Below are positions 6,324-54,466 of a DNA stretch of 64,000 nucleotides, one piece after another. Within the stretch, counting starts at the first letter, position 1. Every line of letters starts with the position of its first letter. The stretch lies in assembly GCA_021815445.1 (NCBI GenBank), contig JAKAGM010000001.1:723710-787709 (forward strand). Reading direction: 5' to 3'. The translations under genes were made by a program, and so were the position numbers. The DNA comes from a bacterium (GTDB taxonomy: Bacteria > Patescibacteriota > Patescibacteriia > UBA10025). The notes below the pieces were generated by a model. It searched no databases, had not been told where the DNA came from, and saw only the letters and a list, made by a program, of their open reading frames with translations.

Positions 6324-7475
6324 TTATGCCAACCGGGCTTCCGCAAGCCGCGTACCGATGACTGTGCGTTCAAGCTTTTCAAATGCAACGGGAATTGAGC
6401 GCGTCCGTAAACCGCAGTCAGGGGTCGGAAAAATCAGTCTGTGATCGCCCATTACCTTCGTGGCGTACAGTATCCTATCGCGAACAAGTTCGGGAGACTC
6501 AAGGAAATCGGTATGGATATCCGTCACCCCGAGCCCGATGCCGCCGGGAATGTGATACTTTTTGAATAATTTCAGCACTTCATAGCCCGGCCTGTCGCCC
6601 TCTTTTATCCCCGGTTTCCTGCTGTCACGATTGGCAAATTCCAGCGCGTACTGGCTGCAGTTGCGCAGTTGAGTAATATGGGGAAAGAGTTTTGAATAGT
6701 CGCTGAAACATATGTGGACGCTGAACATGCATCGAATTCCTTCAGTGGAAGCATTAAATGATTCGACAAAGAGAGGTACTTCTTCGGGATGTGACGTGAC
6801 TGCGGGCTCGTCAATCTGAATCCAGGTGGCGCCCGCAGCAACAAGCGCTTGGATATTGGGCCGAACGACCTGGGTGGCAATATCATGGATGAACCGCTTC
6901 CGCGCCTTTTGACGCGCAACCCGGCCGGCAGAAGTTCCGATAGCGAATGATCGCTTGGTATAATGCTCGTCGTATGACCAGTCTGCGATGGTATAAGCGC
7001 CCGTAATAGGAACTTTGAGTGGCCGATGGGTCATGACTGAAATTTGTTGAAATTCCTTGAGGTGATACGGCGTGAGAAAGCGGGGACGGACTTTGCATGC
7101 CGCCTTCTTGTAGTATTTGTTATCGAATGATCTCACGTGGCCGTAAAAATTGAAACCACCCGCTCCGCTCACCGCCTGGTGGTACATCTCCGTGCGCTGC
7201 TGCTCGCCGTCATAGACGATATCAATGCCGGCTTTTTCAATAAGCCGCAACCCGTACAAGGAGGATATCCTGTAAATCTCGTGAAGGTCTGCGGGGGTTC
7301 TTTTCTTTTTGGTCAAGAGCTCGATGAGATGTTCGGTATCTATACCGAGACGCTTGCCCCACTGTTTCGCGTCTTCAATATCTTTTTTAGGTATGGGCAA
7401 CCCTCTCCCCGCTTTTACGCGCCATTCAGGTTTCGCAAGACTGCCTATTTCGTGAGTAAGAAATGTTCGTATCAT
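6324..7475 (-). CDS. metE: cobalamin-independent methionine synthase, catalytic (C-terminal-type) domain protein
   Basis: 383 aa; WIQIDEPA, HICFSDY (cf. HTHMCY), GVTDIHTD, TPDCGLRTR motifs match MetE C-terminal Zn/homocysteine-binding barrel. Confidence 0.8.
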   Translation of the reverse strand: MIRTFLTHEIGSLAKPEWRVKAGRGLPIPKKDIEDAKQWGKRLGIDTEHLIELLTKKKRTPADLHEIYRISSLYGLRLIEKAGIDIVYDGEQQRTEMYHQAVSGAGGFNFYGHVRSFDNKYYKKAACKVRPRFLTPYHLKEFQQISVMTHRPLKVPITGAYTIADWSYDEHYTKRSFAIGTSAGRVARQKARKRFIHDIATQVVRPNIQALVAAGATWIQIDEPAVTSHPEEVPLFVESFNASTEGIRCMFSVHICFSDYSKLFPHITQLRNCSQYALEFANRDSRKPGIKEGDRPGYEVLKLFKKYHIPGGIGLGVTDIHTDFLESPELVRDRILYATKVMGDHRLIFPTPDCGLRTRSIPVAFEKLERTVIGTRLAEARLA

Positions 7476-9726: not shown

Positions 9727-10386
9727 TTACCCCTCCCATTCGCCTTGCGCCGGCGGATTTCCCTGTGCGGACTCTTCGCCCCGTTCGTTGACCGTTCTCT
9801 CCCCGATCCACTTGTTATCTTCACCAAAATATTTTGTTGTCCGAGAAATTGAACCTTCGGGAGACTTTTGGGAGTTACTTCCCTGAGCGGTGATTGTGGT
9901 TGTTACGGTCTCAATGTATCCTTTTCCGGGTACTTCTTTCCTATCTGTTTCCTGGCGCCATGCATGCCCTGTTTCAAGTATCTTTCCTTCAACGACCGAG
10001 GGCTCCGTGGACTCGGGTGTCGCGTAAGATCTTTTTTCTGTCCACGTACTCGGGCCTTTGAGATGCCCTGGGAGCATTTGACCCTCAACTCCGACTATGC
10101 GACCGCCTTTACCCGGCTTATCATATGTGAAAAACTGATGCCTATCACTCACCAGGCTTCGTTCCTGAGATCCTGCGCTTGCTGCCAAATGAGACTCGCG
10201 AAGATAAATAACCTGACCGTTTGCATCTATAATCCCCTGCTGCTCTGTTTGACGGAGTTCATCGGCGGATACTTTTCCTTCGTGGAATGCTTTTCCGCCT
10301 TCGGGAACTTCGGGCTTATCTCGGATAACAAATGGTTTTGTTTCAACGCTTTCTGGATTGAAACCGAGCGTGTCTGGACTAGGCAT
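9727..10386 (-). CDS. hypothetical protein, low-complexity/likely disordered (G,E,K,T-rich)
   Basis: 219-aa ORF with no recognisable motif; co-directional with and 20 nt downstream of 530-aa membrane protein gene. Confidence 0.4.
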   Translation of the reverse strand: MPSPDTLGFNPESVETKPFVIRDKPEVPEGGKAFHEGKVSADELRQTEQQGIIDANGQVIYLRESHLAASAGSQERSLVSDRHQFFTYDKPGKGGRIVGVEGQMLPGHLKGPSTWTEKRSYATPESTEPSVVEGKILETGHAWRQETDRKEVPGKGYIETVTTTITAQGSNSQKSPEGSISRTTKYFGEDNKWIGERTVNERGEESAQGNPPAQGEWEG

Positions 10387-10405: not shown

Positions 10406-11998
10406 TTAGTAGATCTCTTCTTTCTTTTCCTTTTGAAAAGATACCCAATCCTCCACCACTTCAATAAAAATCTTGAATGGCGCCTCGATAATAAAATCCA
10501 GAACGAAGAGAAAAAGATTGACCTTCGGTGTTTTATTTGAAACCCACTGTCCGACACGGAGGATAGGTATTGAGAAAAAATCAAGAATGATGGTCATCAG
10601 ATTGTCCTTTTCATCTACAATGACCAGCTCTTTGATCTCATATCTCAGCTTAACGCCGAAGAAACTGATGATAGTGAAGAAGAACAGAAACAGCGCCGCG
10701 CTGACGACATTGAATTTCAGCAAGATAAGGAATGAAATGATAAGGCCGAATGAAATGATAAAAGCCACGGCGAAAAACGAATTGAAAAGATACTCCGCGA
10801 ATTTGCTCCGTTTGAATACTTTGCGCTTTTTATACAGGAAACCCGCATAAGGTTCCTGGGAAACTATCTTTTTGAGAAACTCGACAATTTTATCAGTATT
10901 CTTCTTTGACGGAATGCGAATCGAAACTGCTATCACGAACATGAGGAACGGGTGGAACAGCGTGTTGATGAGCAGCGGCGTAAAATGCGTTGTGTGAATA
11001 ATATACCTGTCGTACGGATACTCGATAATGAGGGCGAGCATCATCTTGGTGATAAAGACGTAGATGATTGTCCTGATAAAACTGCGGCGTAATTTTGTAT
11101 GGGCTTTTTTATACCGGGATGCACAGGCTGCGCGCACGCGGTCTTCGAATTCCTGCGGATTGCTCGTGAGCTCCGGGAACCGGTGGGGATTTTCTTCAAC
11201 GATATCCCTCAATATAATGAAAAGGATGGAGAATCTTTTCATGAATCTCTGGAGACGGTCGCCGTACGGATGGAGAATATGGCTGTCGACTTGCTTTTTG
11301 AGGTAAACCAGGTCCTTTTTTACGCGCTCGACGGCTTCAGGCGAGTTCTCAAGCCAACCCGGAACGAAAAAATTAAAAAGATGGTAGCGGAGAATGCTGA
11401 CGTCCGACTTGATCAGCACGCGATGGATAGCGATATACACCTGCAGATCCCGCTCTTCGGGATCGGAAATATGTTCAGCCAGGTCTACGTCCTGCCTGAT
11501 GACTGAGTACATGCACTCTACGAGTGCATCTTCCTGAATCGGCGCGACAAGATGGTGCTCAACCTCGGACGAGAGCAATGAAAGGATCCAATTGCTCATC
11601 TGCCGGCGTTCTTTCGTCAGGCGATTCGGCGCCACGGCATCGAGGAGCACAATATATTTATCGAGAATAAGATCGACTTCTCCGATTACCCGTTCCGGGA
11701 TTGCATTATTCGGAAGATAACGGGCCCTGATCAGTTCGGTCAAAAGCAAACGTCCGAGATTCTCGCGTTTCTCCTCTGTATACAGGCGGCGCTTGATCAT
11801 GCGCTCTATGGCATTTTTGCGCAGAAGATGCTCGTCTTTGTAATCTATCGCATTGCGAATTTTTTCATATATAAACGCAACACGGCTAATGGTTACATGA
11901 ACCTTTATTTTAGGCTCGTCTTTGCCGTAGAGATCCTGCGGACGCTTCGTGTCGTACGCTGCAAGCAGCTTTTTAATGGGTTGTGTGAGCGTATTCAT
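10406..11998 (-). CDS. hypothetical membrane protein: ~290-aa N-terminal soluble domain plus 4-6 C-terminal TM helices
   Basis: 530-aa ORF; C-terminal half strongly hydrophobic (FAVAFIISFGLIISFLILL..., FLFFFTIISFFGV...); no family recognised by eye. Confidence 0.5.
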   Translation of the reverse strand: MNTLTQPIKKLLAAYDTKRPQDLYGKDEPKIKVHVTISRVAFIYEKIRNAIDYKDEHLLRKNAIERMIKRRLYTEEKRENLGRLLLTELIRARYLPNNAIPERVIGEVDLILDKYIVLLDAVAPNRLTKERRQMSNWILSLLSSEVEHHLVAPIQEDALVECMYSVIRQDVDLAEHISDPEERDLQVYIAIHRVLIKSDVSILRYHLFNFFVPGWLENSPEAVERVKKDLVYLKKQVDSHILHPYGDRLQRFMKRFSILFIILRDIVEENPHRFPELTSNPQEFEDRVRAACASRYKKAHTKLRRSFIRTIIYVFITKMMLALIIEYPYDRYIIHTTHFTPLLINTLFHPFLMFVIAVSIRIPSKKNTDKIVEFLKKIVSQEPYAGFLYKKRKVFKRSKFAEYLFNSFFAVAFIISFGLIISFLILLKFNVVSAALFLFFFTIISFFGVKLRYEIKELVIVDEKDNLMTIILDFFSIPILRVGQWVSNKTPKVNLFLFVLDFIIEAPFKIFIEVVEDWVSFQKEKKEEIY

Positions 11999-14143: not shown

Positions 14144-14496
14144 AATTTTTTAAATAAAGTGTTAAAAGAATACAGTAAAAAGTATACCATTTTGAAGCAA
14201 AAAAAGACAGCCATGACGGTATGTTTTGCGCGGCTTGACAATCTTTACTAATAGGCGTACACCGTCTATAGAACCCGAAGCGCATCGTCCTCCGGAGATC
14301 GCGCCAAGGGTAGGAATCCACAATGTCAGTTGGAGGGAATCGTGGATCACGATACATGGGGACTGTAAATCCCCCGGCAAGAAAGCACCTTCGAATCGTT
14401 TTGAGTGAACACAAAACTTCATATCGCGCCATCAACGGGCGACAATCAGCCCACACCCATGGACCACAATGGTCCAAGACCCACATGTGCCTTTTT

Positions 14497-14529
14497 GGCG
14501 AACCGCTTTCCCCGGGTTCGCCTTTTTTT
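14497..14529 (+). terminator. strong rho-independent terminator on + strand inside ORF-free region
   Basis: GGCGAACC-gctttccccg-GGTTCGCC followed by TTTTTTTAT; no + strand CDS upstream within several kb. Confidence 0.6.
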
Positions 14530-14662
14530 ATAATGATTTACTTTAGCCCTCATCGATAGTTTCTTTCTTGCTGTCTTCGAAACAGAATATTTACAACAAA
14601 CAATTAAAGCTCCTTTTTGCGCGGCGCATGTTTGAACCCCACACCATCAGATGGTGTGGGGT

Positions 14663-14841
14663 GAGTTTGCCCGCCTGCCGAAGCTTCACTACGCGAAACG
14701 CTTCGTGTAGCATAGCCATGCGGCGGGCAGGCGCCGCGACGTCCTTTTCCGCCAGAGGCGGATCCGTCCTTTGGCGGACTTTTCTCTCCACTTTTCTTTG
14801 GACGAGCAAAGAAAAGTGGAGCCCGCCCGGAGGGCATCTCC
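14663..14841. repeat. copy A of ~180-nt structured intergenic element (conserved 5' GAGTTTGCCCGCCT, internal hairpins, 3' palindrome CTCCACTTTTCTTTG-n6-CAAAGAAAAGTGGAG, GCCCGCC, GGAGGGCATCTCC)
   Basis: Aligns end-to-end with 22493-22675; overlapping ORF-track ORFs differ in frame between copies, so conservation is at nucleotide/structure level. Confidence 0.75.
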
Positions 14842-14926
14842 TACATAAAATTGTTTTTTCGTTAATCAAGCGACAGAGATCTCCACCAGCTGACACTCGA
14901 GACATCAACTGGACGAAGTTGAAAAG

Positions 14927-16777
14927 TTATTTTGTATTTATGGCTGGCGTCCTGCCACCGCGGAAATCATATATATAGATTGACCCGCCGATTCGGGCGT
15001 CGGGCGTATAATCCTTGAGCCACCAATATACCTGGTCTTGCGAGAGGAGACTTGTAACACTAATAGCGACGACACAGTTGACATCACCCGGGGTATGAGG
15101 ATCTTTAGATGTCGGAAGATAACGGTAATCGATGCCGTAGTAAGGCAAATCAGCCTGACCGAAGTAACTCATGCAGACATGCGGGATGTTATTCTGTAGA
15201 AGATATGTTTTAAGCCGTTTCACATCTTGGCCCCAGTCGATGTTTGAATCGACAAGATACTTCGGCCCGTTGTTAGAGCCCCCTATTGCTTCAGAAAAGT
15301 ACGCGGTATACGCGGGGTACGCAGCGAGGCTTGTCGCCATGTATCCGGCAACGAGAATGACAAGCACGGCACGAAAAGTTTTTGACGATTTTTCCCAGAG
15401 ACCGGCGGCAAAACAGCCGATGAGGACAAAGAGCGCCGGATATACGGGAAAAATATGTCTGACACCGAGATTTATTTTGCTCGTCAGGCTCCAGAGGAAA
15501 TAGAGCAGTGCGCTGATGAGCAGTACCCATAATCCAGGAGTTCTCGTTATAAAAAATTCTTTTCGTTGCCGAGACATTGTCACAAAGAGTGCTGCGAGGA
15601 GGAACACTATAGTCACGAGCGGAGTTTTGACGAGAAATGCTACAGGAAAATACCACCACCATCCTACGTATGAATATCTCCCAAGGAGATACGCCAGATG
15701 CCCCCCTATGTCATGGGAAATGAGCTTGGAGAGCCCTTTAAAATAGGACCATGCGGGAACCGGGGTATCGAAAACAATACGGTTGATAAATCTGCCCGTC
15801 GCCGTCTGCGGATCGGTGAGATGAATGACTTTTTGGACTTCAGGACGCTGCTGGTCCAAGGTGCCGTCTGACACAATGATACTGCGCTGAACCATGAGCT
15901 GCTGGAGGCGAATATCGTCGCGCCCGTATGCGACTTGGCCTCCGTAGATAATGAACGTAACGACGATAAACCCCGCAAGCGCTGAGGCAAAAATCGTCAA
16001 TACTCTTTTGATAATCTTTTTCAGCGTTTGTCCCTCTATCGGATAGATGAAATACCAGAGTATGGGGATGACAATAATGAGAATCCACAAGAACACTGCG
16101 GAAAACTTTGTCATTTGCGCCAAAGCAAAGGTAATGCCAAAGGCGACGATGCGTTTCCACGTCCATTTCTCAAGAAGCCTGACCAGGACATAGAGTGCGA
16201 CAGCGTACCCTAACGCGACACCGACGTCTGTCGTCACATAGCGCCCGTGCGCGAGAAAATTGGGATCGAACGCATACCAGCCCGCGGCGAGGAGCCCTAC
16301 GAGGTCGCCGCCTATCCGCCTGCCCCAGAGGTAGATCATACAAGCAAGCGCAAGGCTGACGAGAACCATGGGAATGCGCGCCGCGAAGAGAATGCGGTCG
16401 GCATTGTTGCCGCTGAGATAAAGGAAGTCATGGGCGAAAGCCCACTCGTTTCCTTCGCGCCACGCCGGGGTATCGAACAAGATATGCGGATGGACTAATA
16501 ACACTGAAAGCCCGGCGAGATCCTTGATAAGCGGAGGGTGCTCTTCATTCATCCTGAAATCCCATTTCAGAAGGTAACTCACCCCCGCAGTAAGGTGGAC
16601 GCCTTCGTCGATTGTCTGCGTTTCTCCCCTCATCGACATTATCTCAAGCGTCCCCATAAGCAGGAGGATGCACATAAGTATACTTATGCGGACTTTCTTT
16701 GAAATGACAAAAGGGGCGGTACTGCGCGGTGCCGCTTGTTGAATCGGAGAATATACGTCCGTGTGAGATGGGTCCAT
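14927..16777 (-). CDS. GT-C family glycosyltransferase (PMT/ArnT-like, family 39/83-type) integral membrane protein
   Basis: Multi-TM protein with DEGVH loop motif after TM1 and long C-terminal periplasmic domain; start set to ATG 16777 (18 nt after upstream gene stop); 115-aa Cys/His-rich N-terminal extension in ORF track rejected. Confidence 0.6.
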   Translation of the reverse strand: MDPSHTDVYSPIQQAAPRSTAPFVISKKVRISILMCILLLMGTLEIMSMRGETQTIDEGVHLTAGVSYLLKWDFRMNEEHPPLIKDLAGLSVLLVHPHILFDTPAWREGNEWAFAHDFLYLSGNNADRILFAARIPMVLVSLALACMIYLWGRRIGGDLVGLLAAGWYAFDPNFLAHGRYVTTDVGVALGYAVALYVLVRLLEKWTWKRIVAFGITFALAQMTKFSAVFLWILIIVIPILWYFIYPIEGQTLKKIIKRVLTIFASALAGFIVVTFIIYGGQVAYGRDDIRLQQLMVQRSIIVSDGTLDQQRPEVQKVIHLTDPQTATGRFINRIVFDTPVPAWSYFKGLSKLISHDIGGHLAYLLGRYSYVGWWWYFPVAFLVKTPLVTIVFLLAALFVTMSRQRKEFFITRTPGLWVLLISALLYFLWSLTSKINLGVRHIFPVYPALFVLIGCFAAGLWEKSSKTFRAVLVILVAGYMATSLAAYPAYTAYFSEAIGGSNNGPKYLVDSNIDWGQDVKRLKTYLLQNNIPHVCMSYFGQADLPYYGIDYRYLPTSKDPHTPGDVNCVVAISVTSLLSQDQVYWWLKDYTPDARIGGSIYIYDFRGGRTPAINTK

Positions 16778-16794
16778 ATGTTTGTAATGGCCGG

Positions 16795-17688
16795 CTACCG
16801 CGTGCTTACCACCGCGAGGACTATGGCAGCCACAAGCGCGAGTGCGCCCCCTATCACTTGGTGGCGCGCTAATCGTTCTTTGTTGATGAAGATTCCAAGC
16901 ATCGCCGCAAGCACCACATAGCTTTCCGTGATAGCTATAGTGATAGCAATGGGCAAAAAGAGCGCCGCAGCCGCATAAGCAATCCATGCGCTCGTGTCGA
17001 GTGCGCTTGCGCCAAGTATCAGCTTCCAACGGCGCATTCCCCACTGGAAAAGTGCAGAACTTTGGCCGCGATAGGTCAGCCATAACAGTACCACGAATGC
17101 AATGACAAGGTGAGTGAACCAAATAGTTATCAGCGGATTCGTAGCCCGGCTTGAGAGGCCTATAAAAACATTATATAGCGACATGACGACAGCACCCATC
17201 GCAGCGTATAGTACGCCGCGCTCAATAATTCCGCGCTTTCCCCAGGGCCACCACCAACGGGGGGCTACCACCCGGATCATGGTAAGCAAAATACCCATAA
17301 AAACAATGAGCATCAGCAGTATCTGGGATGTTGTTACTTTCTCTCGTATGAATACTATGCTGATGAGCGCAGTCACGACCAGTTCGGAACTCATCACGGG
17401 CTCTATGACGGCCAGCTTGCCCCGTTTAAATGATTCGAAATTAAGCACGGCGCTTATAAAACCGACTAGGATCGCAAATCCCAGGAGTTCCAGCGCATGA
17501 TAGTCAGAAAAAAGATACGGGATATCCTTCCAGACAAAAGGGAGGAGCACAATACCGCCGAACGCGCTGACATAAAAAAGCGTATCAAGAGAGCCGATTC
17601 TGCGTATAGTCCGTTGCAAAGCAAAATCTCCAAATCCCCAACTGAGAAATGCTATGCCTGCGGCGATGATACCAAGGAGTGCTGACAT
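16795..17688 (-). CDS. EamA/DMT-family transporter (10-TM)
   Basis: 297 aa, two EamA-like repeats (LSWGFGDFALQ..., hydrophobic throughout). Confidence 0.7.
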   Translation of the reverse strand: MSALLGIIAAGIAFLSWGFGDFALQRTIRRIGSLDTLFYVSAFGGIVLLPFVWKDIPYLFSDYHALELLGFAILVGFISAVLNFESFKRGKLAVIEPVMSSELVVTALISIVFIREKVTTSQILLMLIVFMGILLTMIRVVAPRWWWPWGKRGIIERGVLYAAMGAVVMSLYNVFIGLSSRATNPLITIWFTHLVIAFVVLLWLTYRGQSSALFQWGMRRWKLILGASALDTSAWIAYAAAALFLPIAITIAITESYVVLAAMLGIFINKERLARHQVIGGALALVAAIVLAVVSTR

Positions 17689-17775
17689 CGTTTTTTATTC
17701 GGTCAGTGTTCAAAAAGACTACTACTCACTATACAAGGGAGAAAGAGTTACGACAACAGGCGAATGTGTAAATAA

Positions 17776-18789
17776 TTAGGCCTTCGTCAGCGTCACCAGG
17801 ATCGTCGTGCCCTTGCCGGGGGTGCTATGCGCCTCAATACTGCCGTGGTGCCTGTCCACAATCTGCTTGGCTATGGAGAGTCCGAGGCCGTAGCCGTCTG
17901 TTTTTTCTTTGGACCTGGACGCATCCGCACGGTAGAACCTGTCAAAAATATGCGGGAGTTCCGACGCTTTGATCCCGATCCCCTGATCCTTGACGCTGAG
18001 AATCATATGTCCGCTTGTCTCCCTGGTTTCCACGATGACAATACTTTTCTTCGGGCTGTATTTAATCGCATTATCAATCAGGATGCCAAGAAGGTCGACG
18101 AGGCTCTGATGGTCGCCTAAAACATTCCCCGAGGCAAGCCCGGACTTTATCGTGATTTGTCTTTGACGGGCGAGCACTTCGTTTTGCTTGACGGTATCGG
18201 CTATGACAGACTTGAGATCAACTTTTTGCATCGGTAAAGACTGCTCCTGCTCCTCATATTGAGCTAGGCGCAAAAGGCCTTTAGAGAGATGCTCAAGGCG
18301 CTGTACCTCCTCGAGCGTACTTCGCATGATTCGGTGCGACTCTTCGTGATTCGGCTGTCCGCCCCGCAATGCAACCTCAATCTCAGTTCGAATTGCCGTC
18401 AGCGGCGTACGTAATTCATGGGAGGCGTCCGCGGTAAACCGTCTTTGCGCATCTAAATTGTCTTCGATGGGTTGGAGTGTGCGGCGGGCGAGTACATAGC
18501 TTGCGCTTCCGCCGATGACAAAAACTGCCGCATTGACCAGAAGTAGCGTCGCTAACACTCGGTCATGTATTTCCTGAATCTGGGCTTCGAGGAGTTCATT
18601 CTCAATAGTTATAAACGGTGAGGGCGGAGGGAAACGTTGTTCACGAAAAAGTTCGGCCTGTCGTCGAAGTCCGGCACCAATTTGATTCGTCGTAAGGTTA
18701 TAGAGAGCGAAACTGAAGGATAGGCTGATACACATGATAATCAGGAGGTACCAGCCGGTCATTTTAACCGTGGGAGTATTAAGCTTCAT
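17776..18789 (-). CDS. sensor histidine kinase (2 TM, HisKA + HATPase_c)
   Basis: H-box FTADASHELRTPLTAIRTEIE; N, G1 (DQGIGI), G2 (GLGLSIAKQIV) boxes. Confidence 0.85.
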   Translation of the reverse strand: MKLNTPTVKMTGWYLLIIMCISLSFSFALYNLTTNQIGAGLRRQAELFREQRFPPPSPFITIENELLEAQIQEIHDRVLATLLLVNAAVFVIGGSASYVLARRTLQPIEDNLDAQRRFTADASHELRTPLTAIRTEIEVALRGGQPNHEESHRIMRSTLEEVQRLEHLSKGLLRLAQYEEQEQSLPMQKVDLKSVIADTVKQNEVLARQRQITIKSGLASGNVLGDHQSLVDLLGILIDNAIKYSPKKSIVIVETRETSGHMILSVKDQGIGIKASELPHIFDRFYRADASRSKEKTDGYGLGLSIAKQIVDRHHGSIEAHSTPGKGTTILVTLTKA

Positions 18790-19466
18790 GCGGGCGATTT
18801 AAGCTGGTAGCCGAAACCGCGGACGGTGTTGATCATCGGCTTGCCTTTGAACGGCCGGTCAACTTTTTTCCTCAGCGATGCGATAAATGCCTCAACGGTA
18901 TTCGGTAAAATATCCGCGTCAAAATCCCAGACGTGCTGGATAATCTGGTCCTTCGACAGGATGCGGTTTGCGTTTCGAATGAGAAATTCCAAAAGAGCAA
19001 ACTCTTTATGTGACAGGGCAATCATCTGTCCGTCCCGCTTGACTTCGAATTTCTCCGGATACAGTTCGAGATCGCCGGCCTTTAACACGGTTCCTATGTT
19101 GTGGTTCGGACGGCGGAGAAGTGCGCGTATGCGGGCCAAAAGTTCCTCAAACGAAAAAGGTTTAACGAGATAATCGTCAGCGCCGCTTTCGAGGCCTTCC
19201 ACGCGATCACTGGTTCTGTCCCGAGCTGTCAGGATGAGGATGGGCTGGTGGATGCCCGCTTTTCGGACTTCCCTGCAAATATCAAGTCCGTCACGTATAT
19301 CAGGCAACATCCGATCAAGGATGAGCAGGTCGAAACGGCCGCGAAGCGCGCGGGCCATTCCCTGCCTGCCGTTATAGAGCACGTCCACAGCAAATGATTC
19401 CTGTTCTAATCCCCGCTTTAACGCCTGGGCAATCTTATGTTCGTCTTCGATAAGAAGAATTCTCAT
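18786..19466 (-). CDS. OmpR-family response regulator (receiver + winged-helix)
   Basis: MRILLIEDE..., DLLILDRMLPD, KP...LTARD receiver motifs; C-terminal trans_reg_C (LSHKEFALLEFL...GFGYQL); 4-nt overlap with kinase gene. Confidence 0.9.
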   Translation of the reverse strand: MRILLIEDEHKIAQALKRGLEQESFAVDVLYNGRQGMARALRGRFDLLILDRMLPDIRDGLDICREVRKAGIHQPILILTARDRTSDRVEGLESGADDYLVKPFSFEELLARIRALLRRPNHNIGTVLKAGDLELYPEKFEVKRDGQMIALSHKEFALLEFLIRNANRILSKDQIIQHVWDFDADILPNTVEAFIASLRKKVDRPFKGKPMINTVRGFGYQLKSPA

Positions 19467-19650
19467 ATAGTGGATTGTATGTATGTTAGCTGAAAAAGAG
19501 CTGAAACAATTCTCATTCTACCCCTATAAGCCGTAAATGTAGAGGAAATGTCGAAAATCAGCGGAAATTCAGGGATAAGCCTTACATTTAATCTTCACAC
19601 TACTACTACAGGAAAAAAGAAATCTATGTTCCACCAATCAATAAAAATCT

Positions 19651-20673
19651 ATGCGCCGTTATAAGGCACTCGTAACAGAAATAAAGAATCTTACTCCCTC
19701 GATTGTTGAGATTACCATGGTAAGGCGCGACGGGGCCGACTTTCCGGATTTTCTGCCCGGTCAATATGCAACGTTGAGTTTCCCAAATTATGAGAGGTTA
19801 AAGGGTGAACGATCATTCTCTATAGCGAGCGCCCCGACCGACAGGTCAAGGCTTCGTTTCGGCATCCGCATCGGCGGCCGTTACACGTCAGCCCTCCGCC
19901 GCATTCGCATGCGGGAGCCCGTGATTGTCGCCGGGCCTTTTGGAAAATTCACTTTCGATCCTGACCGTGACAGGTCTGCGGTTTTTATCGCGGGTGGAAT
20001 CGGCATCACGCCGTTTCTCAGTATGATCCGGGCAGCTACTGATCTTGAATTAAAGAACGAGCTTACGCTCATCTACAGTGTCCGATCAATGAATGACGCA
20101 GCATACATGCAGGAGCTTAATGAACTGGAACGCATAAACCCGCATTTGCGTGTTACGTATGCGATATCAGATGAAAAAGTCCCCGGTTTATCCGAAAGAC
20201 TGGTGCCCGGACGCATCAATCCCGAATTAATAGATAAAATGCTTCCCGGGAACATGTGGGGATATTCTTTCTTTTTGTGCGGACCCCCGCCATTCATGGA
20301 CGCGATGACTGCGGCGCTGCGCACAATGGGGCTTCCTGCGTCAGCGGTCATGACCGAGCGGTTTGGCATCGGTTCGTCAGATTTTATCGAACGCGGTACG
20401 CCCATCCCGAAGCTTATTTTTGCCGGCTGGGGCGTAGCAGCGATGATCGTTTTAGGAATCATCGTGAAAGTAGAACAGACGAAACGTGCAAATGCCATTG
20501 CCGCGAACCCGACACCAATCACCAATGTAACCCCTGATACGACTTTACAAAACACGGGTTCGCAGGTACAACTGGCTCCTGCAAACCCTACATACACGTA
20601 CACCCCCCAGCAAACGCAGCCTCAACCGACGTATAGGTCAAACTACATCCGACCGCGGACAACGATGTCTTAA
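19651..20673 (+). CDS. FAD/NAD(P)-binding oxidoreductase, ferredoxin-NADP reductase / flavin reductase (Fre)-like, with C-terminal TM anchor and Pro/Thr/Gln-rich tail
   Basis: RxFSIASAP flavin-binding motif, GGIGITPFLSMI NAD(P)-binding motif; C-terminal hydrophobic stretch AGWGVAAMIVLGIIV then low-complexity tail. Confidence 0.7.
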   Translation: MRRYKALVTEIKNLTPSIVEITMVRRDGADFPDFLPGQYATLSFPNYERLKGERSFSIASAPTDRSRLRFGIRIGGRYTSALRRIRMREPVIVAGPFGKFTFDPDRDRSAVFIAGGIGITPFLSMIRAATDLELKNELTLIYSVRSMNDAAYMQELNELERINPHLRVTYAISDEKVPGLSERLVPGRINPELIDKMLPGNMWGYSFFLCGPPPFMDAMTAALRTMGLPASAVMTERFGIGSSDFIERGTPIPKLIFAGWGVAAMIVLGIIVKVEQTKRANAIAANPTPITNVTPDTTLQNTGSQVQLAPANPTYTYTPQQTQPQPTYRSNYIRPRTTMS

Positions 20674-20688
20674 GCAGAACGCCAACCC

Positions 20689-21627
20689 ATGACGATAACG
20701 GAATCTTTCGGAGCAATGAATACGGCGGTGAGCGGCGGGTTTCGCACGGACCGCATGACAGGCAAGAAACTTTTTCAGGAAGTGAGGCGCCGCGTTGAAG
20801 ACTTTGAAGCTCGTTTCAGCCGCTTCAAGGCTGATTCTGAGCTGTCGAAATTGAACAAACGAGCCGGCGCCCCGACAGCGGTGAGCGATGAAATGTTTGA
20901 CCTCCTTACTGACGCGCAAGCAATCTGGAAAATTACAGACGGTCTCATCGATCCTACGATAGGCCAGGCGGTTATAGCCGCGGGATACGATGCTTCTTTC
21001 GAATTACTTCCCCTTGCGGACGGGGGTTTTGAACGCCAAAAAAATGAGTTTCCGCGAGCAACGTTCCAAGATGTGTATATAGATACGAAAAGAAGAGCAG
21101 TGACGCTCCCCATCGGTGTCACTCTTGACTTCGGCGGCCTCGGCAAAGGGTACCTGCTCGACAAACTCGCTCCTGTCATCGATACGGCAACGTCTGATTA
21201 CTGGCTTTCGTTCGGCGGGGATCTGCTCGTCTCAGGCACTGATGACGGAGGCAGGCCATGGCACATAGGGATCCAGGATCCCCGGGTTTTGGAAAAAGAT
21301 ATTATGCAACTCCGCCCGCCAAAAGGGAGGTGGGGCATAGCCACTTCCGGAATTATGAAGCGGAGAGGTGTCCGCCGAGGGACACCATGGCATCATCTCA
21401 TTGACCCGCGTACAGGACAGCCGGCAGTCACCGATGTCATTGAGAGCACCGTACTTGCCCATACAGCGCTCGAGGCGGATGCCATGGCAAAAGCTGTCCT
21501 GCTTCGTGGTTCGATAGAAGGAATTACATGGGCAGAAAGTCTGCATACTATAGAGGCGCTTGTTATTTCCGCTGATAACCGCGTACTGACAACAGAGAAG
21601 ATGAAGCGCTACATTAAAAACAGATGA
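20689..21627 (+). CDS. apbE: FAD:protein FMN transferase (ApbE family)
   Basis: 312 aa; DFGGLGKGYLLD (cf. DLGGIAKGYAVD) and ApbE-like C-terminal region. Confidence 0.8.
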   Translation: MTITESFGAMNTAVSGGFRTDRMTGKKLFQEVRRRVEDFEARFSRFKADSELSKLNKRAGAPTAVSDEMFDLLTDAQAIWKITDGLIDPTIGQAVIAAGYDASFELLPLADGGFERQKNEFPRATFQDVYIDTKRRAVTLPIGVTLDFGGLGKGYLLDKLAPVIDTATSDYWLSFGGDLLVSGTDDGGRPWHIGIQDPRVLEKDIMQLRPPKGRWGIATSGIMKRRGVRRGTPWHHLIDPRTGQPAVTDVIESTVLAHTALEADAMAKAVLLRGSIEGITWAESLHTIEALVISADNRVLTTEKMKRYIKNR

Positions 21628-22436
21628 ACAAACGATTTTTGATTATACCCGCACTGTTGGTTCTGCTGCCCTTGGGAGCTCGAGCAGTAACGACGGTCGA
21701 CCAGGTAAACACAAAACACGCAGTCCTCGCCCAGGAGTTTGAGGGCGGAGAATCAGAGGGAGACGGTGAACAGCAATATGTCCCGACGCCTTTGATACAG
21801 AAGGATAACAGTCTCCCCACGCAGGCTGCGCCCCCGGTGACAAATCCAACGAATACTCAACCTCAAGTTCAGGCTCCAGCCACGCCATTTTCGACCGCAT
21901 TCCCCTGGGCGTGGGTGGTAACGCGCACTGCAGGGATAACTTCGTACATCCTGCTAGCTTTGCAGACAGTGACCGGGATTGCGCTCTCGACGGGCCTGCT
22001 TTTCCGTATGTTTTCCCCGGCAACATCATGGTCAATCCATCGGGCAATCGGATCGGCTATGCTGGTGTCGGTGCTGCTCCATGTCGGCTCGATGCTTTTT
22101 GACCACTTCATCGGACTGAAACTTGTTGATATTCTGGTGCCCTTTGCTTCGTTCTATAGGCCGACGCTTGTAGCACTCGGCATCTTCGGGTTTTATAGTC
22201 TTTTGCTCGTCCTTGGCACATCACTCTACTCCATGACCAACCATCCACGATTTTGGCGCGTCCTGCACTATCTTGGTTTCCCCATGTTTGTCTCAATTTT
22301 TCTGCATGCAATCCTGATCGGTACTGATCGCCACCAGCCGCTCATGGTATTCATGTACTGGTCATCCGCATTATTGGTCGCGGTTTTTGTCACTTACCGG
22401 CTCGTGTGGAAATACCGACAACCAACTGACTTATAG
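21624..22436 (+). CDS. ferric-reductase-like transmembrane heme-b domain protein (MsrQ/YedZ/NOX TM-domain family) with signal peptide and extracellular PT-rich N-terminal region
   Basis: His pairs spaced 13-14 residues in two TM helices (HRAIGSAMLVSVLLH; HYLGFPMFVSIFLH) characteristic of bis-heme ferric reductase domain; overlaps apbE stop by 4 nt. Confidence 0.6.
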   Translation: MNKRFLIIPALLVLLPLGARAVTTVDQVNTKHAVLAQEFEGGESEGDGEQQYVPTPLIQKDNSLPTQAAPPVTNPTNTQPQVQAPATPFSTAFPWAWVVTRTAGITSYILLALQTVTGIALSTGLLFRMFSPATSWSIHRAIGSAMLVSVLLHVGSMLFDHFIGLKLVDILVPFASFYRPTLVALGIFGFYSLLLVLGTSLYSMTNHPRFWRVLHYLGFPMFVSIFLHAILIGTDRHQPLMVFMYWSSALLVAVFVTYRLVWKYRQPTDL

Positions 22437-22492
22437 CTATTTCCCATTCGCGCGGCGCACTTTCTGAGAAGGAGTATTTATACCAAACGGCC

Positions 22493-22675
22493 GAGTTTGC
22501 CCGCCTAGACTCGACGTCTAGTCGAGGCTGGCTTCGCGAGAGCGAAGCGGGTCCTTTTCCCGCCACATTTATCACAAACAATGAGGCGGGATCCCGCCTA
22601 TGCGGCAGTGACTTGCCTCTCCACTGTTCTTTGAACAAGCAAAGAAAAGTGGAGCCCGCCATGGAGGGCATCTCC
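22493..22675. repeat. copy B of ~180-nt structured intergenic element (same conserved ends as 14663-14841, different internal hairpins)
   Basis: Shares GAGTTTGCCCGCCT 5' end, TCCTTTTCC(C)GCCA core and 60-nt 3' palindromic module with copy A; internal stems CTCGAC..GTCGAG and GCTTCGC-gaga-GCGAAGC replace those of copy A. Confidence 0.75.
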
Positions 22676-30866: not shown

Positions 30867-30885
30867 CCCTGCCTGCCATAGCCCA

Positions 30886-30957
30886 TGCCCTCGAGAGGAA
30901 TTGAACCTCTATGACCAGCTTAGAAGGCTGGTGCTCTATCCGTTGAGCTACGAGGGC
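30886..30957 (-). tRNA. tRNA-Arg (anticodon TCT)
   Basis: GCCCTCG-TA-GCTC-AACGGATA-GAGC-A-CCAGC-CTTCTAA-GCTGG-TCATA-GAGG-TTCAATT-CCTC-T-CGAGGGC-A cloverleaf; no encoded CCA. Confidence 0.85.
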
Positions 30958-31047
30958 ACAGGACATGGCGAGAAGAGTGCGCGAGAGAGAAATGTTTTAA
31001 AAAAATATCTTGATGAGTATAGCTGGTTGTCGTGCCAGCGTCAACAG

Positions 31048-32007
31048 TCAATCTCTCTTTCTGCGGCGAGCATGAAATGCTTTGTACACGTCGCGCAACT
31101 GCTGGTTGGTAATGTGGGTATAAATCTGCGTCGTGGTTATCGATGAGTGACCGAGCATTGACTGGACGGAGCGGATATCAGCTCCATTGATAAGCAAATC
31201 AGTCGCGTAGCTGTGCCGCAGGGTATGGGGAGTCACTTTTTTTGTGATGCCGGCTATCTTGGCATACCGCTCCACTATTCTCTGTACAGAACGCGGAGTA
31301 AGACCTTCATGATGGTTTTTCTCATCGCGGACGCTGATCTCGTGCGCCTTTGACGCCGCCCGGTCATGCCGCAAGAATAGTGATTCGGCATCATCCCGGC
31401 GCGATTCTAGATATTTTTTGATCCAGTGCTTGGCTTGGTTGGAGATAAATACCACTCTGAGTTTGCCGCCTTTGCCGCGGACGGTGAATTCGTCTTTGGC
31501 TAAGTTAATAGAACCCCGCTTGAGCGCGGCGAGCTCTGACACGCGCAGGCCGGATGAGAAGAGTAACTCAACGATGGCTTTGTCGCGCTGACGGATAATC
31601 TCAACTTCCTTCGTTGCCAGCGGCGCCTCGAGAAATCTTTCCAAATCATCCCCTTCGAGAAACGATACCTGTCGCTCGGGAATCTTTGCAAGCTCTATTT
31701 TTTCCGGCGCAAGCGCCGGTACGTCGTGCCGCGCAAGATATTTCAAGAACGAGCGCAGAGCGATGAGATGGTAATTTTGCGTCGTGCGCTTCAGAGACTC
31801 CTGATTTGGGTTACGCAGACGGTTGAGATACAGACGGTACTGGCGGACTTTTTCCATTGTGATATCCCCGGGATCCTTGAGGTTGCCCCATGCGAGGAAT
31901 CTCGCCAGGTAAAAATGATAGTTGCGCACGGTCAAAGGTGAAGTATTTTTCTCTACTTCAAGGTATTCGAGAAAATCGGTGACAAGTTTTTCGAGTTTTG
32001 AAGGCAT
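31048..32007 (-). CDS. tyrosine site-specific recombinase, XerC/XerD-like
   Basis: N-terminal core-binding FLEYLEVEKNTSPLTVRNY; catalytic R (GLRVSELAAL), HTLRHSYATDLL, GHSSITTTQIYTH; start set at MPSKLEK (32007), the 31-aa upstream extension rejected. Confidence 0.8.
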   Translation of the reverse strand: MPSKLEKLVTDFLEYLEVEKNTSPLTVRNYHFYLARFLAWGNLKDPGDITMEKVRQYRLYLNRLRNPNQESLKRTTQNYHLIALRSFLKYLARHDVPALAPEKIELAKIPERQVSFLEGDDLERFLEAPLATKEVEIIRQRDKAIVELLFSSGLRVSELAALKRGSINLAKDEFTVRGKGGKLRVVFISNQAKHWIKKYLESRRDDAESLFLRHDRAASKAHEISVRDEKNHHEGLTPRSVQRIVERYAKIAGITKKVTPHTLRHSYATDLLINGADIRSVQSMLGHSSITTTQIYTHITNQQLRDVYKAFHARRRKRD

Positions 32008-32252
32008 AACGGTAGGCTGAACACTCGAGTAAGGACAGCTTACATTATACGACACATGGGAGTTAGGTGCAAAGAAAAGCCGCACTATCAATACATGCAT
32101 AGTGCGGTGTCGAGACAGCCAAGCGAGGAGAGGTTCTTGTTCTGCCCTTGTCTGCAGTTGCAGAGAGGTGCAATTACCCTTCTAGGACGCTGGTGAGCGT
32201 CAACCTTTGCTTGGCCTGGATCAATTCGACCATCGCGAAGAGAAGACAGGAG

Positions 32253-43201: not shown

Positions 43202-43831
43202 ATGGCATATCCGTTTGCCCGCAATCTCTTCGTTCCCGTACTCCAATTTTTCATTCGGTCGGCGAAGGGTGTAGAGAACGTCCCGGAACACGGACCCTGC
43301 ATACTTGCATGCAAGCACACGGGCCCTCTCGACGGCGTCTTTATGGCCGCGGTTATCGTGCCGAAGATAAAACAGAAGATTCACTTCATCACCAATCCGG
43401 CGCGGTGCGGGTGGCTTTGGGAAAAAATTGTCGTCCAGCGCTGGGCCGGGGCGATTCCGTATAATAAAAAGGATCCTGCGCGCTGTTTGGATCTGGCCCA
43501 GGACTACCTGCGAAAAGGCAAGTTTGTGGGCATCTTCCCGGGCGGCCTGCTTCAAAATCCCGAGGCAACGCAGCGGCGGGGCAAAACCGGAGTTGCACGC
43601 CTGGCATTATGGACACGCGCGCCGGTACTGCCCATTGGACTGCATAATTTCAAAGTGCTCAAACGGGGCAAGATGATTATTACTCACCTCAGAAACCCCC
43701 ACAATATGCGCATCACGATAGGCAAGCCTATGACATTCTCCGACGCATATAACAAACCTATCACCTATGGCCTTCTTCGGGAGATAACGGCGCGCATCGT
43801 AGATCGGATCGAGCAGCTGAGTGCAATGTAA
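43202..43831 (+). CDS. PlsC-family acyltransferase paralog 2
   Basis: CKHTGPLDG (HX4D variant), IFPGG; paralogous to next gene (~45% identity by eye). Confidence 0.6.
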   Translation: MAYPFARNLFVPVLQFFIRSAKGVENVPEHGPCILACKHTGPLDGVFMAAVIVPKIKQKIHFITNPARCGWLWEKIVVQRWAGAIPYNKKDPARCLDLAQDYLRKGKFVGIFPGGLLQNPEATQRRGKTGVARLALWTRAPVLPIGLHNFKVLKRGKMIITHLRNPHNMRITIGKPMTFSDAYNKPITYGLLREITARIVDRIEQLSAM

Positions 43832-43857: not shown

Positions 43858-44493
43858 ATGCATAATGTTTACCCTATCTCACGGCATACACTCCTACGGT
43901 TCCTCAATCTCTTTGTGAAAAAAATTGAAGGCATTGAACACATTCCAAAAAACGGTCCCTACATCATCGCATGCAAGCACACGGCTCCTCTCGACGGTGA
44001 GATTATCGGAGCGGCAATTGTTCCAAAAATTAACAGGAAAATCCATTTTATTACCAATGTTGCAAAACTGGGCCCATTATGGGAAAAAATGATCGCAGAA
44101 CGATGGGCGGGATGTATTACATTCGACCGCGAACAGAGAGGCCGTTGCCTTGAAGTAGCTGCCGAGCATCTGCGGCAGGGGAAAGTTGTGGGGATTTTTC
44201 CAAGCGGTCTTCTCGAAGAGCAGCAGGCCCTAAACGACTACAGCGGCAAAACAGGGGTAGCGCGCCTCGCATTATGGTCCCGGGCGCCGGTCATCCCCAT
44301 AGGAATACGCAATTTCCATTACCTGAGCCTCAGGACAATGATTTGGAAACATCTCACGCACCCTCATACGATGGTAATCAGGATTGGCAAACCGATGACA
44401 TTCCCGGATGCATACAGCAAAGAAACTACCTACCCGCTCCTGCGCGACATGACAAAGAGTATCATGAGCACCCTCGACGCTCTAAGCAACTAA
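43858..44493 (+). CDS. PlsC-family acyltransferase paralog 3
   Basis: CKHTAPLDG, IFPSG; same architecture as 43202-43831. Confidence 0.6.
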   Translation: MHNVYPISRHTLLRFLNLFVKKIEGIEHIPKNGPYIIACKHTAPLDGEIIGAAIVPKINRKIHFITNVAKLGPLWEKMIAERWAGCITFDREQRGRCLEVAAEHLRQGKVVGIFPSGLLEEQQALNDYSGKTGVARLALWSRAPVIPIGIRNFHYLSLRTMIWKHLTHPHTMVIRIGKPMTFPDAYSKETTYPLLRDMTKSIMSTLDALSN

Positions 44494-48734: not shown

Positions 48735-48756
48735 GCGCACCTTTTCTTAGGTGCGC
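48735..48756. repeat. palindromic hairpin GCGCACCT-tttctt-AGGTGCGC (copy 1)
   Basis: Near-identical copy at 49769-49790 and a 5'-half-only copy at 50624-50637. Confidence 0.6.
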
Positions 48757-48811
48757 GACGTTGTTCAATGTCGTGCTCTCTATGTATTCAGTAACACTTT
48801 GACACTTCACA

Positions 48812-49639: not shown

Positions 49640-49768
49640 AAATACTCTGTAAAATTATGGGGTATAATAACTCGTAGCGCAGGCGTCCCTGCTCGCCTCG
49701 CCCGCCTGGCCTCGGCGAGGCTGGCTGAGCTCCGGCGAAGCGGGCCTGCGCGACATTCAATATACCGA

Positions 49769-49790
49769 GCGCACCTTTTCCAAGGTGCGC
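49769..49790. repeat. palindromic hairpin GCGCACCT-tttcca-AGGTGCGC (copy 2)
   Basis: Same 8-bp stem as 48735-48756 with different loop. Confidence 0.6.
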
Positions 49791-49886
49791 GATGATTGCT
49801 TCATTGGACATTTGTGTTGACAACCCAACCTTCCCCAGAGTAAGGTGTATTCTTGATCTTTTCACTCGCAACCAAGAGAGGAATTC

Positions 49887-54202: not shown

Positions 54203-54273
54203 CGGGGCATGGCGCAGTTTCCGCCAGAGGCGGATCAGCCTCCGGCTGAGGCTAGCGCGTCCCGCACCATTTT

Positions 54274-54345
54274 CGGGGAGTAGCGCAGTGGTAGCGCACT
54301 CGCTTTGGGAGCGAGGGGTCGCAGGTTCAAATCCTGTCTCCCCGA
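54274..54345 (+). tRNA. tRNA-Pro (anticodon TGG) embedded in a 13-bp flanking inverted repeat
   Basis: CGGGGAG-TA-GCGC-AGTGGTA-GCGC-A-CTCGC-TTTGGGA-GCGAG-GGGTC-GCAGG-TTCAAAT-CCTGT-CTCCCCG-A; flanks CCCGCACCATTTT / AAAATGGTGCGGG extend the acceptor helix to ~20 bp. Confidence 0.85.
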
Positions 54346-54466
54346 AAATGGTGCGGGAAGGTCGCCGGTTCGAGTCCCCGCCTCGACTCGCCTAGCAAAC
54401 ACCCTTCTTGAACTAAAACCAGGTCTCGGCGAGGCGGGCGGCCATCCCGACAAATAAATTGAAGCT

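Follow-up and report, generated by a model that had tools for sequence, protein, structure and literature searches.

BOX elements of Streptococcus pneumoniae are modular repeats (boxA-boxB(n)-boxC) of about 100-300 nt that occur in more than 100 copies, lack a transposase of their own and can be co-transcribed with their neighbours, while the ERIC/IRU and BIME/REP repeats of Enterobacteria have been proposed to act in mRNA 3'-end stability and in termination. ERIC elements consist of one long imperfect palindrome, and REPs are palindromes of 20-40 nt, tagged GTAG or CGTC, that are mobilised by RAYTs. Patescibacteria, or candidate phyla radiation (CPR), have genomes of about 1 Mb that are tightly packed and considered repeat-poor, and to our knowledge almost nothing is known of their non-coding RNAs and mobile DNA. 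Here we analyse a stretch of 64,000 nt from one such bacterium (positions 723,710 to 787,709 of contig JAKAGM010000001.1; hereafter the window), and describe an element of about 183-230 nt that is repeated within the window and on either side of it. By comparison with these known systems, we see about an even chance that the element belongs with the mosaic intergenic repeats of the BOX/ERIC/BIME kind, as a dispersed, non-coding and lineage-specific one that lies downstream of plus-strand transcription units and is co-transcribed with them; “mosaic intergenic repeat” here denotes a functional class and not a family defined by homology.

The features that place the element in this class are its dispersed intergenic copies, a combination of conserved and optional modules, a strong predicted structure and a lack of coding capacity. 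It resembles BOX elements as an intergenic non-coding dispersed repeat of similar size, with conserved end modules, variable internal hairpins and a very stable predicted structure, and differs from them in that no sequence similarity was seen, the phylum is a different one and all the copies found here share one orientation. With ERIC/IRU and BIME/REP it has in common a palindromic character, a location in transcribed spacers after genes, and internal insertions and deletions at fixed points, comparable to the 61-nt hairpin of copy A and the short and long forms of hairpin M5 described below. It departs from ERIC and REP sequences, however, in combining several hairpins in two domains with long-range stems (P0 and P3) that are not palindromic; its hairpins are unlike one another, and there are no inverted doublets of a single REP.

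A first-pass annotation of the window, made from the letters alone, had drawn attention to two segments (14663-14841 and 22493-22675) as copies of one structured element, and these do have sequence in common far beyond chance. Both begin with GAGTTTGCCCGCCT (at 14663 and 22493) and then carry GTCCTTTTCC, a 3' module of about 60 nt is 90-92% identical between them, and each contains a 15-bp palindrome (14786-14821 and 22619-22654). A 21-mer of the 3' module occurs exactly twice in the window and not once in 100 dinucleotide-preserving shuffles, and chance similarity is excluded as an explanation. The two segments are not the only copies. Across about 104 kb of the host genome (about 12% of the 877-kb contig ena:ERZ27237554:k141_1660939, on which the window occupies positions 723,651-787,650 and on which copy D is numbered), we identified at least four full copies, together with one partial relative and one solo hairpin:

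Copy A, 14614-14838, plus strand: full element of about 225 nt, with two-domain architecture and a 61-nt nested hairpin.
Copy B, 22447-22672, plus strand: full length with a rearranged 5' domain, identified by nhmmer and covariance-model matches, fold and alignment.
Copy C, locus L009 6830-7017, plus strand: 3 kb before the window, seen after extending the window by 10 kb on each side.
Copy D, contig 836,742-836,927, plus strand (10013-10198 on the minus strand of the reversed locus L013): 49 kb after the window.
Partial relative, 49674-49754, plus strand: related to the 5' domain of copy B, without a 3' domain.
Solo hairpin, 54218-54236, plus strand: TTTCCGCCAGAGGCGGATC, identical to hairpin M5 of copy A and 37 nt upstream of tRNA-Pro.

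The last of these is a 19-nt piece that had been reported earlier near tRNA-Pro; the piece is real, although it lies at 54218-54236 and not at 54224-54242. A covariance model (R1) built from the four full copies and run over 230 kb, which included host loci and loci from relatives, returned exactly copies A, B, C and D, with a score of 122 bits for copy A (E = 1.8e-35), and nhmmer recovered copies C and D at E = 3.6e-29 and 2.7e-31. Pairwise identity among the full copies is 85-93%, with C and D, 116 kb apart, being 93% identical over 177 nt, and a self-comparison of the available 104 kb identified this element as the main dispersed repeat of the host genome. All six pieces lie on the plus strand, over 123 kb. 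Because copies C and D became available, it could also be recognised that homology starts about 45 nt upstream of the limit first proposed, at (T)GCGCGGCGCA (14618 in A and 22448 in B).

Copy D was found through a 109-aa spurious open reading frame (ORF) overlapping copy B, which in a search of 1.84 billion protein cluster representatives led to P0124, a 306-aa predicted protein whose N-terminus is the antisense translation of copy D. In these representatives and in a 5.8 billion-sequence collection, the only other spurious ORF recovered was from the same genome, and a 77-aa spurious ORF over copy A, used as a protein query, matched nothing except itself. That 77-aa ORF (P0121) is antisense to copy A, and P0124 (L013 10001-10921, plus strand) covers copy D in antisense and masks a genuine ORF of about 220 aa that was left uncalled (approximately 10947-10287 on the minus strand, with an ATG near 10947 and a TAA near 10287). 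Since both are spurious, the repeat generates false gene calls. The copies share no coding potential, as their insertions and deletions are not multiples of three and break any frame; a coding sequence was rejected on these grounds, and no reading frame is common to the copies. Local segmental duplication was likewise rejected, the flanks being unrelated and the copies lying 8-116 kb apart.

Each full copy can be described in terms of a 5' and a 3' domain. In the 5' domain of A, C and D, the 5' motif CGCGGYGYA pairs with URCRCCGCG, just before GTCCTTTT, to form a 9-bp stem (P0) that in the predicted fold encloses a hairpin, M1 (stem of 10-12 bp), and the unpaired GAGUUUGC. P0 is 100% paired across these three copies, with one C-G to U-A double change and one U.G pair. 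In the 3' domain, a 7-bp stem (P3; GUCYUUU with GGAGGRS, three of its pairs being constant U.G) closes three hairpins, M5, M6 and M7, the first of which is short in A but long in the other three copies. Within copies A and B, all on the plus strand, the parts are as follows:

14620-14628: 5' strand of P0 in copy A, CGCGGCGCA; of its nine bases, CGCGGCGC pairs with GCGCCGCG at 14731-14738 in the minimum-free-energy fold.
14637-14661: hairpin M1 of copy A, CCCCACACCATCAGATGGTGTGGGG, identical in copy C; an A to G change in copy D gives a G.U pair.
14663-14670: GAGTTTGC in copy A, unpaired in the predicted fold and the same in all four copies, where the element was first proposed to begin.
14671-14731: 61-nt nested hairpin specific to copy A, inserted directly after GAGTTTGC and ahead of the P0 3' strand; the fold shows the hairpin, and the alignments show no counterpart in C or D.
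14741-14747: 5' strand of P3 in copy A, GTCCTTT, pairing with GGAGGGC at 14829-14835, with U.G in three of seven pairs.
14749-14778: hairpins M5 (CCGCC-AGA-GGCGG, the short form) and M6 (TCCGTC-CTTT-GGCGGA) of copy A, from the fold.
14786-14821: hairpin M7 of copy A, a perfect palindrome of 15 bp around the loop GACGAG, with the same sequence in C and D.
14854-14859: T6 run of copy A, 18 nt after P3, with TTTTTTCGTTA common to copy D.
22510-22526 and 22531-22548: two hairpins specific to copy B.
22551-22669: 3' domain of copy B, with P3 at 22551-22557 and 22663-22669, M5 at 22559-22590, M6 at 22594-22605 and M7 at 22619-22654.

The copies differ from one another mainly by the gain, loss or replacement of whole hairpins. 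Copy A has the 61-nt hairpin and the short M5; in copy B, M1 is replaced, the 3' strand of P0 is degenerate (GCGAAGCG), M7 has one uncompensated T to G change, and the region corresponding to the 61-nt insert of copy A shares its first bases and then continues into different hairpins. The 49.7-kb locus consists of a 5' domain only, in which the blocks CG.AGCGCA, GCCCGCCT, CGAGGCTGGCT and GCGAAGCGGG follow in the order of copy B, diverged and with a closing stem of their own (GCGCAGGC/GCCTGCGC), and the 54.2-kb locus consists of one hairpin. A T6 run lies 18-24 nt 3' of P3 in A, C and D, with none after copy B, and likely marks the 3' limit of the repeat. Two structural proposals of the first-pass annotation had to be revised in the light of these comparisons. 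The end-to-end closing stem that it drew (GAG..CUC plus UGCCC..GGGCA, that is, GAGTTTGCCC with GGGCATCTC) is possible in A and B only, both partners being absent from C and D, and P0 and P3 take its place; and the interior that it described as compensatory-variable reflects insertion, deletion and replacement of entire hairpins, with a single double change in four copies.

Predicted folding is strong throughout. Compared with shuffled sequences, the plus-strand folds of the two segments as originally delimited gave z = -6.9 and -5.6, and the full copies ranged from -4.1 to -8.7, the full-length fold of copy A reaching -124.9 kcal/mol (z = -8.7). Pairing extends to 96% of the cells of the core alignment and to about 50% in slid controls. 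The plus strand is the more stable in A, C and D (-93.4 versus -83.0 kcal/mol for D), although not in B. Four stem changes among C, D and A affect one side only, and each of them preserves the pair on the plus strand alone (as G.U or U-A), three stem changes in the core alignment being disruptive, and P3 can form only on the plus strand because it is rich in G.U, which becomes an A.C mismatch on the other strand. The plus-strand-only G.U pairs and the minimum free energies thus make the plus strand the folding one, if structure matters. All four copies also contain, on the plus strand, terminator-like sites in which a hairpin is followed by a T tract: M6 then GACTTTTCT, and P0 or a hairpin then GTCCTTTT. 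In copy A, M6 followed by CTTTTCTC was flagged in this way by the terminator scan.

We next consider what is found outside the host. By its sequence, the host is a Kerfeldbacteria-like member of the Patescibacteria (CPR) with a small genome (GC content 50%) and no close sequenced relative: its UppP protein has no relative above 80% identity, and the named relatives are metagenome-assembled genomes labelled ‘Candidatus Kerfeldbacteria’ and ‘Patescibacteria group’. Loci of seven relatives whose UppP is 68-80% identical, about 103 kb altogether, would be expected to hold about four copies at the density seen in the host, and neither nhmmer nor the covariance model found one there; synteny around uppP is not conserved in these loci. 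An exact 20-mer of the 3' module (AAAGAAAAGTGGAGCCCGCC) had one match among GTDB species genomes, in a Spirochaete coding region, and a 22-base pattern (GAGCCCGCCN{1,3}GGAGGGCATCTCC) had one match among JGI metagenomes, inside a high-GC ORF; both are chance matches. The element was not found in viral contigs, phages or plasmids. As far as these relatives and databases extend, the family appears to be confined to the host lineage. Rfam 15 at its gathering threshold returned only tRNAs from the window and loci L009, L012 and L013, and ARAGORN together with the Rfam tRNA and tmRNA models found only the four ordinary tRNAs of the window. Permissive Rfam scans of all four copies gave inconsistent sub-threshold matches; the highest-scoring, to ylbH, reached 22.9 bits where 50 are required and was confined to the minus strand of copy C. 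The literature on repeats and structured RNAs of Patescibacteria or Kerfeldbacteria, when searched, yielded nothing of relevance. The original description of a repeated, strongly hairpin-forming element outside any known class, with no Rfam family to assign it to, therefore stands. The annotation had named in advance a local duplication including the flanking genes, a want of further copies and membership of a known family as outcomes that would speak against it; we found unrelated flanks, additional copies and no match to a known family.

It had also left the choice between a structured non-coding RNA family and a MITE/REP-like mobile hairpin, which was the right pair of options. On the first of these, the copies would be genes for a multi-copy, trans-acting structured RNA of about 185-230 nt on the plus strand, expressed from a non-canonical promoter of its own or processed from an upstream transcript and ending near the T6 run, with the two-domain fold and the unpaired GAGUUUGC or CU-rich linkers as a functional surface for a protein or target. 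We regard this as the main rival to the mosaic-repeat reading, although a tentative and rather unlikely one. It would explain the strand-asymmetric fold, whose architecture is kept in A, C and D, the one compensatory pair in P0 and the four single-sided changes compatible with plus-strand pairing, the invariance of GAGUUUGC, the T6 runs after A, C and D, and the absence of common coding potential; in addition, the sequences show that the M5 loop of B, C and D carries CAAAC, with which GUUUG could pair in a tertiary contact. Set against this, the covariation signal is no greater than in many controls (243 of 500 shuffles reach the observed value in four sequences with one double change only, the C-G to U-A in P0 of copy C), and loops are as conserved as stems, so that identities of 85-93% speak for recent copying and not for purifying selection on structure. 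Parts of the fold have been lost in two copies (the M5 loop in A, M1 and P0 in B), and neither the loci of the seven relatives nor Rfam holds a homologue. Furthermore, no sigma-70-like promoter was found upstream of the element at any of the four copies, although canonical promoters are recognisable elsewhere in this genome, and the upstream flanks have only about ten pyrimidine-rich bases in common. Multi-copy small RNA families such as Qrr, LhrC and the csRNAs possess conserved promoters, canonical terminators and lengths of 60-120 nt. The element is like them in comprising several highly similar, structured, non-coding intergenic copies in one genome, but unlike them in having no promoter common to the copies and in its length of 185-230 nt.

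The surroundings of the pieces bear on whether the element acts on its neighbours:

Copy A, 14614-14838, plus strand: among minus-strand genes, with the end of a minus-strand PMT_2 glycosyltransferase gene downstream.
Copy B, 22447-22672, plus strand: starts 11 nt after the stop codon of a plus-strand ferric-reductase gene, with the convergent uppP downstream.
Copy C, L009 6830-7017, plus strand: after a plus-strand DUF3048 gene and that gene's terminator-like hairpin, and before a histidine-kinase gene.
Copy D, contig 836,742-836,927, plus strand: after the uncalled but evident plus-strand ORF, and before a promoter-like site (9 of 12 consensus positions) and the next plus-strand gene.
49.7-kb piece, 49674-49754, plus strand: in the spacer between two plus-strand genes, just after a TATAAT box.
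54.2-kb piece, 54218-54236, plus strand: between plus-strand tRNAs.

Every piece thus occupies a spacer in the sense orientation, after the end of a plus-strand transcription unit; copy A lies 85 nt downstream of a region with a plus-strand promoter-like site and a strong intrinsic terminator at 14500-14530. This, and not the position beyond a minus-strand gene to which attention was first drawn, is the consistent feature of the placement. Copies C and D precede the next gene's own promoter, which for the histidine-kinase gene is near-consensus (TTGACA-17-TATGAT) and lies about 100 nt after copy C. The link to undecaprenyl-phosphate functions that the first two copies had seemed to offer was not borne out by the others, since copy C lies between the DUF3048 and histidine-kinase genes and copy D between two hypothetical genes; as the neighbouring genes of the copies have nothing in common, the association is a coincidence. 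These contexts also largely refute a cis-regulatory leader or riboswitch for the neighbouring gene, the undecaprenyl-phosphate link included, and we consider such a role extremely unlikely. In favour of it, copies C and D precede genes of their own orientation, and in D and A the P3 3' strand could pair instead with downstream sequence ahead of the T run. On the other hand, A and B have no plus-strand gene downstream, the genes after C and D have their own promoters past the element, the neighbours (PMT_2 glycosyltransferase, UppP, ferric reductase, DUF3048, histidine kinase and hypotheticals) are functionally unrelated, and no Rfam family matches.

The spacer that holds copy A (14144-14926) is a non-coding gap of about 780 nt, unusually long for a compact genome. 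On its plus strand, a promoter-like TTGACA at 14235-14240 is preceded by TTTTGCGCGGC, the 11-mer that starts copy A, and the strong intrinsic terminator GAACCGCTTTCCCCGGGTTCGCCTTTTTTT is found at 14500-14530. The stretch between the two has no Rfam match, a fold z of -1.6 and no relative in the loci compared. We considered 14225-14530 as a small RNA related to the element, given that TTTTGCGCGGC is in common, and rejected this in view of its z-score and lack of relatives; from its sequence, the stretch between promoter-like site and terminator may encode a small RNA or be a tiny gene, or else what is left of a decayed one.

The second of the two options, mobility, makes predictions about the ends. 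Classical MITEs possess terminal inverted repeats and target-site duplications of fixed length that abut their ends. The element resembles MITEs such as Correia/NEMIS of Neisseria, RUP and bcr1 of the Bacillus cereus group in being short, non-coding, multi-copy, intergenic, foldable and lineage-restricted, with similar copies, and like DDE-type MITEs it is present as multiple highly similar non-coding intergenic copies (four full ones, 85-93% identical). Its two ends are, however, not reverse complements of each other, the 5' one being Y-rich followed by TGCGCGGCG and the 3' one GGAGGGCATC or the T6 run, and no fixed-length duplication is found directly at the ends of A-D. A motif CCGAC(A/C)(A/C) was noted 36-61 nt upstream of the cores of B, C and D (22412-22420; L009 6771-6780, and also 7027-7036; L013 approximately 10236-10228, minus strand). 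In copy C it forms part of a flanking 10-nt direct repeat, and it may reflect a target preference or chance.

A different route would be for a Y1 (HUH) transposase, its gene lying elsewhere in the genome, to move the element in the form of single-stranded DNA, which would make it a non-autonomous relative in kind of IS200/IS605-type PATEs or of RAYT/REPIN systems. Such a mechanism would account for the lack of terminal inverted repeats and adjacent target duplications, for the perfect hairpins near both ends (M1 and M7) and for the uniform orientation of all six pieces over 123 kb, on one replichore. The ends of IS200/IS605 elements are similar imperfect palindromes, with a conserved target of 4-5 nt 5' of the left end. 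M1 and M7 are unrelated in sequence to one another and are perfect palindromes; the left end is preceded by no fixed 4-5-nt target, the flanks being only pyrimidine-rich; the gene tables of the 104 kb examined list no Y1 transposase; and GC skew is flat in the window and gives no replication direction. We therefore judge this route to be distinctly unlikely.

Since M7 is the best conserved part of the element, identical in A, C and D, its 15-bp palindrome and the other inverted repeats might instead bind a dimeric protein as an operator, a recombination site or a nucleoid-organising site, with the rest of the element as a passenger; both strands fold well because the palindromes are perfect. 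Such a DNA-level site would account neither for the 185 nt of non-palindromic sequence that is conserved, nor for the long-range complementarity of P0 and P3 with its one-strand-only G.U pairs, nor for the uniform orientation, and no regulator gene is consistently adjacent. We consider it very unlikely.

Taken together, equal conservation of loops and stems, the gain and loss of hairpins, the partial derivatives, the lack of a shared promoter, the absence from relatives and the location in spacers between a terminator and a promoter favour a recent mosaic repeat over an old, selected non-coding RNA family. On the mosaic-repeat reading, the element would have multiplied recently within the host lineage. 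Read-through from the upstream plus-strand unit would yield an RNA copy of it, which would fold into two domains, P0 around M1 and the G.U-rich P3 closing M5, M6 and M7, and this fold would serve as a structured 3'-end block, either an auxiliary terminator or a barrier to exonucleases. To judge from the polarity of the motifs, such a block is the most likely role in this model, and the RNA probably does not act in trans. The sense orientation and the plus-strand-specific pairing suggest read-through transcription, and suggest that orientation is under selection.

Several observations weigh against the mosaic-repeat reading. The expected footprints of copying are missing: there are no terminal inverted repeats or adjacent target duplications, there is no transposase nearby in the 104 kb, and there is no recombinase nearby. 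Direct repeats of 9 and 10 nt do flank copies B and C, which for two of four copies has a chance probability of about 0.003, but they lie at variable distances of 9-63 nt from the core with non-homologous filler between, so that no standard insertion model fits, and copy A has none of 6 nt or more and copy D a 6-mer only. None of the T6 runs was called as a terminator by the scan, which called no adjacent GC-rich stem, and the genome-wide figure of about one copy per 26 kb is an extrapolation from about 12% of the genome. Finally, a functional structured RNA would be just as likely to show the multi-stem junction, the GNRA-type loop seen in copy B, an unpaired GAGUUUGC that does not vary and the one compensatory change in P0. 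In a further, unlikely proposal, the element is a hitherto undescribed structured RNA, specific to this patescibacterial lineage, that is itself active, whether as a detached guide or scaffold RNA working with an unlinked protein or as the RNA or single-strand intermediate of a new copy mechanism that produces no terminal inverted repeats and no adjacent target duplications. Bridge and omega RNAs, which serve as guides or scaffolds for recombinases or nucleases, provide a model for the detached form. Were the RNA active in this sense, the distant direct repeats around B and C would be a trace of the copy mechanism, and the two-domain fold, plus-strand G.U stems, invariant GAGUUUGC and orientation would be functional requirements.

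A number of other features were noted in and around the window. The tRNA-Pro gene downstream of the solo hairpin (54273-54346) lies within a 13-nt inverted repeat (CCCGCACCATTTT/AAAATGGTGCGGG, 54261-54357) that would lengthen the acceptor stem of the precursor, and is followed at 54360-54392 by a stretch containing GGTTCGAGTCC that resembles a tRNA T-arm fragment and in which ARAGORN calls no gene. Close to the 49.7-kb piece, a second repeated hairpin (GCGCACC-TTTTC..A-GGTGCGC) is found at 48735-48758 and 49769-49792, its two occurrences being 86% identical and each lying in the 5' leader of one of two neighbouring plus-strand genes (starts at 48812 and 49887), shortly after a -10-like box. 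Locus L009 has a 64-nt direct repeat (2048-2111 and 2451-2514, 95% identical), one copy of which overlaps a tRNA gene (L009 2014-2085); judged by its sequence, this may be the attachment-site duplication of an integrated element. A phage-type tyrosine integrase gene at 31048-32100 (minus strand) adjoins tRNA-Arg (30885-30958, minus strand), with tRNA-His 1.2 kb away, and the gene arrangement suggests that this region may be the edge of an integrated element; in the uppP locus of one relative (L016), an integrase lies 3 kb from uppP. Segments 43287-43756 and 43949-44421 are tandem diverged paralogues, 64% identical over about 480 nt. The short-read assembly of another sample has a contig (L002, logan:SRR13299515) that ends at 11063, inside copy B and near GAGTTTGCCCGCC; short-read assemblies break at repeats in this way.

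For work on these genomes there is a practical consequence, in that the repeat breaks short-read assemblies and yields false gene calls in public protein sets. For the biology of Patescibacteria, a structured, orientation-biased repeat offers a handle on how reduced genomes tolerate or use repeats and on how their transcripts end. Should the element prove mobile, whatever mobilises it must leave no footprints of the classical sort; should it prove to be an RNA, it would be among the first lineage-specific structured RNAs described for the Patescibacteria.

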